From assembly GCA_964567525.1 (NCBI GenBank), contig CAZMNL010000003.1:1-24656 (forward strand): DNA of 24,656 nt, written 5' to 3'. The notes under the pieces were generated by a model. The model saw nothing but the letters and a program-made list of their open reading frames with translations. It had not been told where the DNA came from and ran no database searches. This DNA is from an uncultured Anaerolineaceae bacterium. Its GTDB lineage: Bacteria > Chloroflexota > Anaerolineae > Aggregatilineales > Aggregatilineaceae. A program made the translations under genes and the position numbers. Shown here piece after piece: positions 13,605-22,455 of the stretch (position 1 is the stretch's first letter; each line of letters opens with the position of its first letter).

Positions 13605-15554
13605 GTGAATAACCGCTCACGTAACGTATTCGTATGGGTGCTGATCATCGCAGCGATTGCTGCGATTTACGTTGGAGTACGCAACAGCAGCGCCGGGACA
13701 GAAGACATCACGGCCAGTGAATTGGTAGAAGACATCAACCGGCGGCTGGTCGCTTCAATTGAAGTCTCCGACGACAATGAGCTGACAGCCATCTATCGGA
13801 ACGATGAACGGCGCAAAGCGCAGCTCAACCCCAACGCTTCAAATCCCCTGGAAGTGCTGGAATCCCTGGGCGCAGACCCGGAAATTCTACACACAGATGT
13901 AGACTTTGAATTCAAACAATCGAGCAATATCTTCAACTGGATCGGCCTGCTCGGTACATTTCTGCCGCTGCTGCTCATCGGTGGTTTCATCTACTTGATG
14001 CTGCGGCAAGCACAGGGGTCGAATAACCAGGCGCTTTCGTTTGGCAAGAGCCGGGCACGTATGTTTACCGGCGACCAGCCAACCGTCACGTTTGACGACG
14101 TGGCCGGGGCCAACGAAGCCAAAGAAGAATTACAGGAAGTGGTCGAATTCCTCAAAGACCCGGAACGCTTCATCCAGCTTGGCGCACGTATCCCTAAAGG
14201 CGTGCTGCTGGTCGGGCATCCGGGAACCGGTAAGACACTGATGGCGAAGGCCGTCAGCGGTGAGGCAGGTGTGCCCTTCTTCAGCATTTCCGGTTCAGAG
14301 TTCGTGGAAATGTTCGTCGGCGTAGGGGCCAGCCGTGTGCGTGACTTATTCGAACAGGCCAAGCGCCACAGCCCGTGCATTGTCTTCGTGGACGAGATCG
14401 ACGCGGTAGGCCGCCATCGCGGGGCCGGGCTGGGCGGCAGCCACGACGAACGCGAACAGACGTTGAACCAGATTCTCGTCGAAATGGACGGGTTCGACAC
14501 CGACACCAATGTGATCATCATCGCGGCGACCAACCGCCCCGATATTCTCGACCCGGCGTTGCTGCGTCCGGGACGCTTCGACCGCCGCGTCGTGCTGGAC
14601 CGTCCTGATATGCGCGGACGTGAAGCTATTCTGAAAGTTCACTCGCGCGGTAAACCACTGGCAACGGACGTTGACCTGAGCGTGCTCGCCAAATCTACGC
14701 CCGGTTTCGTCGGTGCAGACCTGGAAAACCTGGTCAACGAAGCGGCTATCGTCGCGGCCCGCAAGAACAAAAAGAGCATCGGCATGCGCGACTTCGAGGA
14801 AGCAGTCGAGCGCGTGGTGCTGGGGCCGGAGCGCCGCAGCCGCATTATCACCGAAGAAGAAAAACGTCTGATCGCCTACCACGAAGCCGGACACGCTGTT
14901 GTCGCGCATATGCTGCCTGGCGCGGACCCGGTCCGCAAAGTGACCATTGTTTCGCGCGGCATGGCGGGCGGCGTCACCTGGGTCATGCCGAAGAACGACT
15001 CGGCCCTGGGTACGACGCGCAAGTACCAGGACCAGATCACCTGGACACTGGGCGGGCGTGCTGCCGAAGAAATCGTTTTTGGCGATATCACCAACGGTGC
15101 ATCAAGCGACCTGGAACACGTCACGCGCATCGCGCGCACGATGATCACCCGTTGGGGCATGAGCGCCAAACTCGGCCCGCGTGTCTTCGGCCAGAAAGAA
15201 GAACTGGTCTTCCTGGGGCGCGAGATTGGCGAGCAACGCGACTACAGCGAAAGCGTCGCCGAACAGATCGACGAGGAAGTCCACGAACTGGTATCCGTAG
15301 CTTACGACCGCGCGCTAACGCTGCTGCATGAAAACCGCGACAAGCTCGACGCCGTAGCCGGACGCCTGGTAGAAATTGAAACAATTGGCCGTGACGAGTT
15401 CCTGGAACTGATGGGCGAGCCACCTTCGCACGATGATCACGACGACATCCCTGACGAACCGACCGCGTCGGCACGCGCCGACGACCTCGACGACGCACAA
15501 ACCGACAGCGATATGCCCCCCTCACCTATGGGTACAGCGCCCTCACCCGCGTGA
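13605..15554 (+). CDS. ftsH: ATP-dependent zinc metalloprotease FtsH
   Basis: Two N-terminal TM segments, Walker A GHPGTGKT, Walker [35 protein letters not shown], zinc motif HEAGH; GTG start with GGAGG SD. Confidence 0.98.
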
Positions 15555-15641: not shown

Positions 15642-16337
15642 CTACTTGCCCGCGAACACCGGCCCGACCACCGCGTCAGCCGCTTCGCGCATGGCATCAT
15701 CGGGATACACCGCCACAGGGAAACCCACACCCGATAGAAACGGGATATCCGAGCCACTGTCGGCATAGGCGGCGCACGCACTGACGGCGATATCGGGCCA
15801 GTTTTCCGCCAGATAGCGTTGGGCAAAAGCCACTTTGCGCACACCGGAACACGTCTCCCCCACAATGCGCCCGGCGCACACATCGCCGTCAAACGCGACC
15901 CGCGACCCCAAACCAGCATCAGCCTCCATCAATTCGGCAAAACGGCTGACAATGCGCTCAAACATCGTCGATACCAGCACAACCGGGTGGCCCTGTGCCC
16001 GATGCATCTTGAGCAAATCCACCACATCGGCGCGCACATTCGGGACCAGCGCCGTCTGGACGATTTTCTCACACATGGCGTCCACCTGTGTCCTGTGCCA
16101 ACCGCGCATGAGCCACGCCATCAGCCGCACCCAGCGATCCCGGAACCGGGCCTGGTCCGCGAGACGCGCTTTGCTCAGCGCATAGTGCGGGAACGCCGTC
16201 CCATACAGCCACAACTTGCGCGCCGGGAGTACGTCTTGCGATTGTACCAGCGCCTTCCAGACCGGCCCGCCGGTGGTCAGTGTGCCGTCGATATCGAACA
16301 ACGCAGCCTGCACATCCGAATGATCGGTATAGGTCAC
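15642..16337 (-). CDS. HAD-superfamily (SerB-like, subfamily IB) phosphatase, 231 aa
   Basis: Motif I ALFDIDGTLT, motif II VLVST, motif III K, motif IV YADSGSD. Start moved to the GTG at 16337 behind a GAGGAG SD. Confidence 0.88.
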   Translation of the reverse strand: MTYTDHSDVQAALFDIDGTLTTGGPVWKALVQSQDVLPARKLWLYGTAFPHYALSKARLADQARFRDRWVRLMAWLMRGWHRTQVDAMCEKIVQTALVPNVRADVVDLLKMHRAQGHPVVLVSTMFERIVSRFAELMEADAGLGSRVAFDGDVCAGRIVGETCSGVRKVAFAQRYLAENWPDIAVSACAAYADSGSDIPFLSGVGFPVAVYPDDAMREAADAVVGPVFAGK

Positions 16338-16371
16338 AATGAACTCCTCTTTGATTTTGGGCGATACAAGA

Positions 16372-18129
16372 TCAGTTTCCTTCCGCCTGCTCACGCGCCT
16401 CGATCTCCATACGTGCGAGTTCCCGACGCAGAATTTTGCCTACCGCAGTGCGCGGCAGTTCGTCCACAAATTCGATACGCGTAGGCACTTCATACCGCGC
16501 CAGCCTATCACCCGCAAACGCGATCAACTCGTCTGCGGACAATGTATACTCCGGCTTGACCACAACCCAGGCTTTCAATGCCTCCTGCCCCACCTTCGCC
16601 GAGTCAGGATGTGGAATAGAAGCGACGGCAGCATCCTGCACAGCCTCGTGCTCCATCAGCACATCTTCCACATTGCGCGGATAAACGTTAAATCCGCCAA
16701 TCAGCGCCATATCTTTTTTGCGGTCTACGATGTAAAAGTAACCATCTTCGTCCATGCGCGCGATATCGCCGGTATACAGCCAGACCTTACCCTCGGCATC
16801 AGGGCGCAGCGCGTTCGCCGTCTCGGTCGGCATCCCGTGATAACCGCGCATTAACTGCGGCCCGTGCATCAACAGTTCGCCAATCTCGCCGACCGGCAAA
16901 TCCGTTTCGCCCTCATCCAGATCAACGATGCGCATTTCCATGTCAGGAAACGGCAGCCCAATTGAACCGGTGCGATTCTCCCCCTTGACCGGGTTCGCGT
17001 GCGAGGCGGTAGGCGCTTCGCTCATCCCGAAGCCCTCCAGGATCACGCCGCCGGAGAGTTCCTCAAAGCGGCGCTTGGTAGCCGGTGGCAGCGGCGCGGA
17101 CCCGCTGATACACGCATAAATTGATGATAAGTCGAAACGTCCTTCCTTAACGCCCTGGTGGTTATTGATCGCGTTAAACAGTGCCGGCACGCCCATGAAA
17201 ATCGTCGGGCGGAACTGGTCGATATTTTCTACCACGTCCTGAATATCGCGCGCGTTGGTCACCAGGATCATCTCCGCGTGCATTGAAACCGCGAAACTCA
17301 TCACCGCCACCATGCCGAACACGTGAAACAGCGGAATCGCCGCCAGAAAGACCTCCTGGACGTTCTCACGGGCCAGCCACGCGCGGCACTGCATCGTATT
17401 GGCAACCAGCGCCGCGTGGGTGGACATGGCCGCTTTCGGCACGCCGGTAGTACCGCCCGTATACTGAAAAATAGCGATATCATCGCCGCTGACAGCCACC
17501 CCCGGCTGACGCCCGGCATACTGCGCCAGCACGTCCTGGAACCCGTGATCGCCGGGGCGCTTCTCGATGCGGTGGCCCTCTTTTTTCTCTTTCGCCAGCG
17601 TGAACAGCACGCGCGCCAATCCGGGTAAATATTCCTTGATATTCGTCACAATGACGTGCTCTACCGGCGTCTCGCGCTGGATGGACTTCACACCCTCGTA
17701 GAACAGCGAGAGTGTCACCACCGCTTTCGCGCCGCTGTCCTTCAACTGCTCGGCAATTCTGCGCGGCGGGAACGTAGGATTCACAGCCACCACCGTACAT
17801 CCGGCTTTGAGGATCGCGTAGAACGTGATCACGAACTGGGGGCAGTTGGGCATCACCACCGCCACGCGATCCCCCTTGTGCAAGCCCCAATCAACCAGCG
17901 CCGCCGCCAGCGCATCTGAAGCCGCGTTTATATCGTGGTAAGTCAGCCTGTGCGCCAATCTGCCCACCAGCGGCAGTTTGGCCGACATAATCGTCGCGGT
18001 AGCATCACCATGCTGTTCAGCAGCGCGGATCAAGAACGTATGTAAGGGATGGTTGGGATAGGGGTGCAGCGTGTGCGGCACGTCATCGTCGTAGTGTGCC
18101 AGCCAGGGTTTATCTCGATATGTAACCAT
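16372..18129 (-). CDS. fadD: Long-chain-fatty-acid--CoA ligase, 585 aa
   Basis: YTGGTTGVPK AMP-binding motif, EGFGMSE, WLYTGD, DRKKDM, PRTAVGKILRR. Start moved to the ATG at 18129 (GGAGG SD). Confidence 0.9.
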   Translation of the reverse strand: MVTYRDKPWLAHYDDDVPHTLHPYPNHPLHTFLIRAAEQHGDATATIMSAKLPLVGRLAHRLTYHDINAASDALAAALVDWGLHKGDRVAVVMPNCPQFVITFYAILKAGCTVVAVNPTFPPRRIAEQLKDSGAKAVVTLSLFYEGVKSIQRETPVEHVIVTNIKEYLPGLARVLFTLAKEKKEGHRIEKRPGDHGFQDVLAQYAGRQPGVAVSGDDIAIFQYTGGTTGVPKAAMSTHAALVANTMQCRAWLARENVQEVFLAAIPLFHVFGMVAVMSFAVSMHAEMILVTNARDIQDVVENIDQFRPTIFMGVPALFNAINNHQGVKEGRFDLSSIYACISGSAPLPPATKRRFEELSGGVILEGFGMSEAPTASHANPVKGENRTGSIGLPFPDMEMRIVDLDEGETDLPVGEIGELLMHGPQLMRGYHGMPTETANALRPDAEGKVWLYTGDIARMDEDGYFYIVDRKKDMALIGGFNVYPRNVEDVLMEHEAVQDAAVASIPHPDSAKVGQEALKAWVVVKPEYTLSADELIAFAGDRLARYEVPTRIEFVDELPRTAVGKILRRELARMEIEAREQAEGN

Positions 18130-18151
18130 TTTAGGACCTCCGGGGAGTAAG

Positions 18152-18179
18152 TATGCGTACAATTTGATCTATGTTAACC
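18152..18179 (+). promoter_or_regulatory. dif-like 28-bp site (11-6-11) in the divergent fadD / xer-like intergenic region
   Basis: TATGCGTACAA-TTTGAT-CTATGTTAACC compared with E. coli dif GGTGCGCATAA-TGTATA-TTATGTTAAAT: 7/11 and 8/11 arm identities with an exact 6-bp spacer. Confidence 0.4.
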
Positions 18180-18231
18180 TATTTCAAGATACGATGATCA
18201 ATAACAGTGAAGATTCAACAAAGGAAACACC

Positions 18232-19179
18232 ATGTCGCTGCGACAGTTGCCGCTTTTGCCCGATGATTCAGAACACGCCCTGACCCACTTCAGCCCATTC
18301 AGCGCAGCGGTAGAACCGTTTTTAGAATATCTACGCCAGGAAGGGCGCAGCCCGCACACGATCAGCGCGTTCCAGTCTGATCTACGCCTGGTGACAGAGT
18401 TCTTCGGGGAGGATATGCCACTCGGAGAATTCACCACCAGCCAGCTTAACCGCTTCATGGAATGGATCGAAAGCGGGCGCGGGGTTCCATGCAGCCGCAA
18501 GACCTACGCGCGGCGCGTGACGACGCTCAAGGTATTTTTCAAATTCCTGAAAAGCGAGTCTGTGCTGCCCTACGACCCCGCCGAGGCCCTGCTCCAGCGT
18601 TCCGGTGCGGCCCCGCTGCAACCGGTGCTGTCCGATGACGCCATCGCGCGCCTGCTCTCGCAAACCGCCCAACTGCGACTCGCTGACAAACCCGACGCAC
18701 GTCCCGATCTGCTGGTGCGCTTGCTGCTGGATACCGGCATCAAAAAGAGTGAGGCCATGCACCTGACCCGCGACCACATCCAGCGCGACGACCCGCAGCA
18801 GCCCGTACTGATTGTGCGCCACAAAAAGCCGAACAACGTCTACAAAGAGCGCAGAATCCCGCTTGACCCCGACTGGCTCAACGTGCTGGACGAATACCTG
18901 GAACAGTATGAACTGGAAGACACGATCTTCGACTGCACCGCGCGCAACCTGGAATACGTGCTGCGTGATACGGCGAAAGGCGCAGGAATCGAGGACCGCG
19001 TGTCGTTTGAGATTCTGCGCTGGACCAGCGCCGTGCGCGACTATCGCCGGGGCATGGACCTGGAGAAACTGCGCGAGAAGATGGGCCTGAGCCGCATTAG
19101 CTGGCGCGAAACCAGCGACAAGATCGTCCGGTTGGCTGCCATACAGATGCACGGGGAACTACCCGAAAACCGGGCCTGA
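18232..19179 (+). CDS. XerC/XerD-like tyrosine recombinase homolog with degenerate catalytic residues, 315 aa
   Basis: Integrase SAM-like N-domain (FLEYLRQEGRSPHTISAFQSDL...ARRVTTLKVFFKFL...DPA), box I LLDTGIKKSE, KERRIPL, box II SFEILRW...MGLS. No Tyr after residue 271. Confidence 0.88.
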   Translation: MSLRQLPLLPDDSEHALTHFSPFSAAVEPFLEYLRQEGRSPHTISAFQSDLRLVTEFFGEDMPLGEFTTSQLNRFMEWIESGRGVPCSRKTYARRVTTLKVFFKFLKSESVLPYDPAEALLQRSGAAPLQPVLSDDAIARLLSQTAQLRLADKPDARPDLLVRLLLDTGIKKSEAMHLTRDHIQRDDPQQPVLIVRHKKPNNVYKERRIPLDPDWLNVLDEYLEQYELEDTIFDCTARNLEYVLRDTAKGAGIEDRVSFEILRWTSAVRDYRRGMDLEKLREKMGLSRISWRETSDKIVRLAAIQMHGELPENRA

Positions 19180-19187
19180 TCTGCGCC

Positions 19188-22455
<3,268 letters not shown>

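Follow-up and report, generated by a model that had tools for sequence, protein, structure and literature searches.

What does a Xer-type recombinase do for its host when the residues of its active site have been replaced? This question is raised by a gene at positions 18232-19179 on the plus strand of the window, by which we mean the whole 24,656-nt stretch of DNA analysed here. The original prediction had described its 315-aa product, referred to as P0001 in the following, as a recombinase fold probably repurposed as a DNA-binding regulator. We compared P0001 with characterized recombinases, followed its orthologues through the phylum Chloroflexota, and examined its N-terminal tail, its genomic neighbourhood and a catalytically intact recombinase of the same genome. 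Our analysis identifies P0001 as a domesticated, non-catalytic Xer-type tyrosine-recombinase fold.

P0001 is a full-length two-domain tyrosine-recombinase fold

The ORF encoding P0001 (window:18232-19179:+) begins with an ATG that is directly preceded by an in-frame stop codon, and it is free of internal stops. The initial description of the ORF as full length was right. ORF analysis, Pfam, NCBIfam, HMMER, structure prediction with AF2 and Foldseek all went into the assignment of 18232..19179 (plus strand) as a complete gene for a catalytically degenerate Xer-like protein. It is preceded by an AT-rich divergent intergenic and promoter region (18163..18231), which it has in common with an acyl-CoA-synthetase-like gene on the minus strand and which includes a Shine-Dalgarno-like AAAGGA approximately 7 nt 5’ of the ATG.

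Two Pfam profiles matched P0001 with scores over their cut-offs: Phage_int_SAM_1 (PF02899) at residues 28-109 with 50.6 bits, and Phage_integrase (PF00589) at residues 133-290 with 38.7 bits. Of the 172 positions of the Phage_integrase profile, the match extends as far as 160, short of the helix that bears the Tyr. The PF02899 match and the helices of the structural model (residues 23-36, 41-58, 69-82 and 89-108) place a core-binding, SAM-like N-terminal domain at residues 23-109 (18298..18558, plus strand), while the PF00589 match, the alignment to XerA and the column counts described below place a catalytic-domain fold devoid of catalytic residues at residues 133-307 (18628..19152, plus strand). 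All NCBIfam equivalogs that were matched remained below their cut-offs, with 93.9 bits against 220 for XerA, 87.7 against 329.6 for XerD and 86.3 against 335.15 for XerC.

The AF2 model, which was built from 28 orthologues, had a mean pLDDT of 87.8 and comprises the C-terminal helix at residues 288-307. Foldseek matched it to XerA, XerH, lambda Int and Cre, each with a probability of 1.00. P0001 is a genuine two-domain tyrosine-recombinase fold. As a side observation, the best PDB sequence match to P0001 was chain 14 of 9i5v, a chain of 401 residues that bears the name ‘ribosome-associated translation inhibitor RaiA’ in its PDB entry; the HxxR and LGH motifs are preserved in its residues 7-273, which can be aligned with Xer-type recombinases, and the chain seems to be either a fusion or wrongly labelled.

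The catalytic residues are replaced and no alternative tyrosine is conserved

Active tyrosine recombinases require the catalytic residues R-(E)-K-H-R-H/W-Y, of which P0001 keeps only E174, K205 and R263. The HMMER alignment of P0001 to XerA (5hxy) showed that the Arg of box I is replaced by Lys171 (‘ytgvrvgel’ in XerA, ‘dtgikksea’ in P0001; codon 18742-18744, plus strand as for all codons given here). Within the HxxR motif the His is replaced by Glu260 (19009-19011) and Arg263 (19018-19020) is kept (‘phvlrht’ in XerA, ‘feilrwt’ in P0001), followed by W264 as a further key position, and the His of the LGH motif is replaced by Leu286 (‘ilghasva’ in XerA, ‘kmglsris’ in P0001; 19087-19089). When nine residues are counted on from the LGH position, the position of the nucleophile falls on Ser295 (19114-19116), and the protein sequence contains no Tyr after Y271. 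P0001 thus deviates at four of the seven canonical catalytic positions, and three of the four residues of the R-H-R-Y tetrad are lost. Alignment to XerA thus bore out every residue call of the original prediction, which had listed Lys171, E260 to R263, Leu286 and the lack of any Tyr after residue 271.

A nucleophilic Tyr might be displaced rather than lost. Column counts over 74 diverse family members did not show any Tyr of the catalytic domain to be conserved, and all tyrosines of P0001 that came into question, Y204, Y222, Y226, Y242 and Y271, were variable in this set, which argues against a displaced nucleophile. A Tyr occupying the active site would have refuted the original prediction; judged by these columns, there is no candidate for one.

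P0001 retains the second Arg of the tetrad (R263), E174, many basic surface residues, and R207, which lies with K205 in the hairpin. Since both domains are intact and under selection, the catalytic residues are replaced and the basic residues are kept, P0001 most likely still wraps DNA but is not able to cleave it.

The inactive gene is conserved in Anaerolineae and some other Chloroflexota

A word-index search returned more than 1600 relatives of P0001, the best 120 of which, at 57-92% identity and mostly named as Anaerolineae, Aggregatilineaceae or Chloroflexota, were used for column counts. Residues K171, K172, E174, R207, R263, W264, L286, S287 and S290 were invariant in these 120 orthologues, and E260 was present in 115. 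Position 295 was variable, with S in 95, G in 16 and other residues in 9 sequences. Nei-Gojobori estimates of dN/dS were 0.11-0.22 for P0001 against eight family-level orthologues, with dS above 1, and about 0.3 against two more distant orthologues; as dS is saturated, these figures are upper bounds. Fixation of the substitutions in 120 orthologues and the dN/dS of 0.11-0.22 rule out that P0001 is a recently decayed gene or a pseudogene. Retention of the catalytic residues by the orthologues had been named in advance as the sign of recent decay, and the orthologues do not keep them.

At the level of whole genomes, 36 of 41 relatives had exactly one copy of the gene, and so did 226 of the 251 genomes that represented the class Anaerolineae, in which identity was 40-55%. 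Across the phylum, the family was detected in 31 of 121 sampled genomes (E ≤ 1e-25), comprising all sampled members of the class and several other families, and most small-genome lineages were without it. The earlier claim that the dead site is under selection is thus supported by substitutions kept in 115-120 of 120 orthologues, by the low dN/dS and by single-copy presence throughout the class. The dead Xer-like gene is a conserved, single-copy, chromosomal gene in Anaerolineae and some other Chloroflexota.

When 1.84 billion cluster representatives were searched with a profile, 150 family members were recovered at E ≤ 1e-30, and 73 full-length, diverse representatives at 50% identity were examined for the dead-site pattern. 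With three exceptions (one S and two gaps), the LGH position was occupied by L, I or V. The box I position was mostly K; R occurred in 8 representatives, and another 10 had S, T, A, P or a gap. R263 was kept in all but one. The most conserved columns of the family were R263, R207, E174, R238, R94, R95 and R157. Homologues came from Chloroflexota and, in one case, from a MAG labelled Bacteroidetes; none was streptococcal. The selection acting on the dead site, the class-wide presence in single copy and the absence of an alternative Tyr together argue for a non-catalytic role in DNA binding.

Several variants were observed within the family. One subfamily (P0183, P0186, P0190, P0232, P0234, P0237 and P0248) has S, T, A or R in box I, R at the position of the HxxR His, and A or F at position 264. 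Many distant orthologues (L030, L031, L035, L037, L039, L044, L046-L051 and L054) end with [RK]LA.P.[LFAV] directly before the stop codon, as in RLAEPPL, RLAAPAL and KLAFPA, and this C-terminal tail, which the copy in the window lacks, is a candidate for a second linear motif. The family was also screened for informative domain fusions and none was found; the eCIS_core N-terminus of family member P0143 was dismissed as an apparent gene-call or assembly chimera.

The N-terminal tail carries a motif of the clamp-binding type

Residues 5 to 10 of P0001, Q5-L-P-L-L-P10 (18244..18261, plus strand), constitute a motif of the beta-clamp-binding type (QxxLF class), which lies in a disordered tail. In the set of 120 orthologues, 116 sequences had no gap in this region, and Q5 was present in all 116, L6 in 112, P7 in 114 and L8 in 110. 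At residue 9, F (99 of these 116 sequences) predominated over L (16), and the copy in the window belongs to those with L instead of F at this fifth position of the motif. Residues 1-4 and 11-16 vary freely around it. Since residues 1-12 have a pLDDT below 50, the N-terminus is considered a flexible tail; the first helix of the model starts at residue 23.

The motif was also found in diverse representatives whose tails are otherwise unrelated, in the forms QLSLF, QLPLF, QLALF, QLELF, QLDLF, QISLF, QLSLW, QPSLF and similar. Among 29 loci sampled from the class and the phylum, with 31-52% identity to P0001, 20 carried Qxx[LM]F 5’ of the domain between unrelated flanks. It was missing from the remaining 9 loci and from the subfamily around P0183 and P0248 described above, which has no QxxLF tail and starts with a short motif of the ‘RPW / PRW’ type instead. 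This implies that the clamp-type motif is not essential to the family as a whole. As a measure of background, the first 60 residues of the long ORFs of this genome contained Q..[LIM]F in 28 of 2788 cases (about 1%) and QL.LF in 3 of 2788.

Clamp-binding motifs of bacteria conform to QL[S/D]LF or, in a broader form, to QxxLF, in which positions 1, 4 and 5 are critical, and QLSLPL is a tight-binding clamp hexapeptide (PMC12309361). The tail of P0001 resembles that of a clamp client in having a QxxLF-type motif on a flexible terminus, with positions 1, 4 and 5 conserved between drifting flanks.

For structural prediction of a complex, residues 1-30 of P0001 were folded with DnaN of the same genome (L019:344-1486:-). 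The pair obtained a docking score of 0.37, compared to 0.01 for the best control, a result that the procedure rates as weak support and that we use as a consistency check. The score may reflect prior exposure of the predictor to solved clamp-peptide complexes. It also lies in the range up to 0.60, in which passing scores are wrong in the majority of cases if the pairing was not likely beforehand; 51 of 78 solved complexes attained the docking mark, as did 2 of 108 mismatched pairs. In the predicted complex, residues 3-9 of P0001 contact DnaN residues 155, 172, 174-177 and 247 and the C-terminal residues 372-378, which we take to be the equivalent of the canonical peptide cleft of E. coli beta. 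A Y-family polymerase (IMS, PF00817), sought because Pol IV would have served as a positive control for the motif, was not detected in the assembly, which is 85% complete.

Clamp-type termini were also noticed in two other proteins of this genome, a DNA methyltransferase of the N6_N4_Mtase/D12 class (L056:1-1167; G000:C295:3206-4375) that starts with MEQIYQLSLFPED, and an AAA_21 ATPase (L055:1-1143; G000:C15:1549-2694) that ends with EQLALF. Both may be additional clamp clients.

Genomic context gives no functional hint

In the window, the P0001 gene is monocistronic and surrounded by genes for FtsH (13605-15554, plus strand), a HAD-family hydrolase (15642-16394, minus strand), the AMP-binding acyl-CoA-synthetase-like protein (16372-18162, minus strand), a PUA/SAM methyltransferase of the RlmI type (19188-20420, minus strand) and the NAD-dependent DNA ligase LigA (20401-22437, minus strand). 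The Pfam-annotated syntenic locus of Aggregatilinea lenta, whose orthologue (P0065) is 71% identical, keeps this gene order, and the neighbourhood in Aggregatilineaceae reads FtsH, PMT_2, HAD, AMP-binding ligase, P0001 gene, RlmI-like methyltransferase and LigA. On a 3.7-Mb contig carrying a 58%-identical orthologue, the neighbours were an ABC transporter, UPRTase, a WD40 protein and sigma-70. As neighbours differ between families, gene context provides no functional hint for P0001, and the neighbourhood was discarded as a clue because synteny is confined to Aggregatilineaceae. In accordance with the earlier statement that neither att sites nor cargo genes surround the gene, none was found; there are no phage genes and the flanks are housekeeping genes.

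The original prediction had further linked P0001 to an adjacent dif-like site, a 28-mer at 18152-18179. The upstream regions of 44 orthologous loci did not share the ATGTTA/TAACAT element, and the 28-mer is therefore not a conserved partner site, so that this link had to be abandoned. By the same evidence, an autoregulatory or dif-like operator upstream of the P0001 gene was rejected.

An intact TIR-recombinase is associated with a dif-like element

The same genome encodes a 506-aa fusion of TIR_2 and Phage_integrase domains (L001:529-2049, on contig C118), in which R, the His of HxxR, H and Y are intact and the TIR_2 domain comprises residues 17-130. In many relatives of the same family this gene is located 18-33 kb from the dead Xer gene. 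Outside the family, homologues in the class match only the recombinase part, which was detected in 36 of 61 class genomes (E ≤ 1e-15).

The sequence upstream of the active recombinase gene was compared over eleven loci, from this genome and ten relatives (L020, L058-L067). An exact 11-mer, ATTATGTTACA, was found just upstream of the gene in 7 of the 11 loci. All 11 contained a wider non-coding element composed of TGTAACATAAT, a 6-bp spacer and AATGTTATA, to which an inverted TTATGTTACA is often added at a distance of about 20 bp. The outer arms of this dif-like element match each other, as TGTAACATAA and its inverted copy. Judged by its sequence, the element is a candidate for a gene-adjacent dif and/or an operator of the active recombinase, and it resembles a dif located next to its gene, as in systems that use one recombinase such as XerS or XerH. 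Clustering of half-sites in the manner of B. subtilis XerD was rejected, since the arm TGTAACATAAT occurred only 0-2 times per genome in three relatives.

A clamp-tethered DNA clasp and its alternatives

The fold, the conserved loss of catalytic residues and the N-terminal motif are best accommodated, with somewhat more than even confidence on our part, by a protein that binds DNA without catalysis and is tethered to the sliding clamp. P0001 would bind DNA non-covalently with both clasping domains, while its N-terminal QLPL[F/L] tail would dock in the hydrophobic cleft of DnaN. Such a tether would place the DNA-binding body on clamps at or behind replication forks, and from this position P0001 could read a chromosomal site or a DNA structure in step with replication. 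Its role might lie in the management of the terminus or of sister chromosomes, comparable to the non-catalytic role of XerD in SMC unloading, or in clamp-dependent control of replication, comparable to Hda or YabA.

A regulatory function of the more conventional kind was also considered, namely that P0001 is a plain transcriptional repressor or activator like SPbeta MrpR and that its N-terminal motif is unrelated to the clamp. Intact DNA-binding domains, a monocistronic gene with its own promoter region and the precedent of the recombinase-fold repressor MrpR/YopR (PMC10516654) are in line with such a function. However, no operator-like motif is conserved upstream of the orthologues, differing neighbours between families mean that a conserved regulated partner is absent, and a dedicated repressor is not usually a near-universal single-copy gene of a class. 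Nor would this reading account for the retention, across 31-100% identity, of QxxLF in a disordered tail. The repressor or regulator reading of the original prediction thus gained little from the upstream regions and the neighbourhoods, and we regard it as unlikely.

The two-paralogue paradigm established by XerC and XerD suggests another function, in which P0001 would form heterotetramers at dif with the active Xer-type enzyme, the TIR fusion, lend the site asymmetry or control and leave cleavage to its partner. The conserved location of the intact recombinase gene (L001:529-2049) 18-33 kb from the dead gene in many relatives and the conserved dif-like site just upstream of the former fit this arrangement, which we nevertheless judge to be distinctly improbable: homologues of the active enzyme were detected in 36 of 61 class genomes (E ≤ 1e-15) compared to 226 of 251 for the dead protein, one active partner alone would yield only Holliday junctions, the matching outer arms suit a single recombinase with a gene-adjacent site, as in XerS and XerH, and the arm motif is neither enriched elsewhere nor present upstream of the orthologues of the dead gene. 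Hardly credible to us is an unconventional enzyme that would use a pocket of K171, K172, E174, R207, E260, R263, W264, S287, S290 and T294 and a nucleophile other than Tyr for phosphoryl transfer or another reaction. Several of the pocket residues, including S287, S290 and T294, are invariant in close orthologues, yet across the 74 diverse members position 290 also accommodates A, Q, T, G and H and position 294 V, A, I and M, the C-terminal helix has no conserved Ser, Thr or Tyr, and substitutions are present at four of the seven canonical catalytic positions. Single substitutions equivalent to those of P0001 abolish the activity of Cre. The small remainder of our confidence goes to readings other than these four.

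Extending the clamp-tethered reading to the whole family leads to a more far-reaching proposal, which we put forward tentatively, as possible rather than probable. The phylum-scale family of pseudo-recombinases may be an unrecognised class of sliding-clamp clients, in which DnaN delivers a non-cutting Xer-fold clasp to newly replicated DNA, where it would recognise a site or a branched structure and control a replication-coupled step such as licensing of initiation, termination or terminus organisation, or the handling of SMC or FtsK. If this holds true, it would be a Chloroflexota-specific solution to the task that Hda, YabA, MatP or XerD perform elsewhere.

Comparison with known systems and significance

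Contrary to the original prediction, which knew of no described chromosomal housekeeping example of a dead recombinase fold, such a protein had already been reported: the streptococcal and lactococcal XerD-like protein YnbA (‘XerD’ of S. pneumoniae, YnbA of L. lactis) is encoded on the chromosome, lacks two residues of the R-H-R-Y tetrad as well as the C-terminus, and is inactive on difSL, with another, active recombinase resolving dimers (PMC1914069). YnbA and P0001 are alike in being chromosomal, lineage-conserved Xer-type proteins with a degenerate catalytic tetrad. They differ in that P0001 has the C-terminal helix 288-307 and has lost three residues of the tetrad, whereas YnbA is truncated and has lost two. 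Moreover, a sequence-family link between them was not found, the NCBIfam matches of P0001 being generic XerA, XerC and XerD matches far below the cut-offs. To our knowledge, no clamp-binding motif has been reported for YnbA. Since dead chromosomal Xer-like proteins have been described, the re-use of the recombinase fold as such is not new.

B. subtilis XerD, which acts as an SMC unloader at XerD-binding sites in the terminus (Karaboja et al. 2021, as cited in PMC12322038), resembles the proposed role of P0001 in that a Xer fold performs a site-specific job in chromosome organisation other than recombination. Unlike P0001, it keeps its catalytic residues and recombines at dif. XerC/XerD, XerA, XerH and XerS share the two-domain architecture and the fold of P0001 and include its best structural matches, but P0001 has neither their catalytic residues nor an adjacent conserved dif.

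Hda carries its clamp motif at the extreme N-terminus. Like P0001, it has a short Q-L-x-L-(F/L/P) motif on a flexible tail, within the N-terminal ten or so residues; it is an AAA+ protein related to DnaA with a fold unrelated to that of P0001, for which clamp binding is predicted.

MrpR/YopR of SPbeta is an inactive tyrosine-recombinase fold serving as a DNA-binding master repressor (PMC10516654). MrpR is encoded by a phage and controls lysogeny, whereas P0001 is found class-wide among housekeeping genes with no phage genes nearby, and MrpR was not among the PDB sequence matches or the top 50 Foldseek matches of P0001. Domesticated Cryptons are further dead recombinase folds (PMC3212892). A search of the full-text literature found no paper on a dead Xer protein of Chloroflexota or on a clamp-binding tyrosine-recombinase-like protein, which gives the clamp proposal neither a precedent nor a contradiction, and neither Chloroflexi nor inactive members are mentioned in Smyshlyaev 2021. 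The clamp motif and the phylum-scale family of dead Xer proteins appear to be undescribed.

The biology of the chromosome has hardly been studied in Chloroflexota, a phylum abundant in sludge, sediments and soils. A class-wide, long-dead recombinase fold represents a clean case of domestication from enzyme to binder in a housekeeping setting. If the N-terminal motif binds DnaN, the protein would represent a kind of client not previously known for the sliding clamp of bacteria, and it would also offer an entry point to replication-coupled chromosome organisation in this phylum. In addition, hundreds of Chloroflexota genes, in genomes and MAGs, that are annotated as ‘site-specific recombinase XerD’ or ‘integrase’ would have to be re-annotated, as they could be miscounted as markers of mobile elements. 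Altogether, the P0001 family is separate from YnbA, MrpR and the Cryptons, being distinguished by its Chloroflexota lineage, its full-length C-terminal helix and its clamp-type motif.
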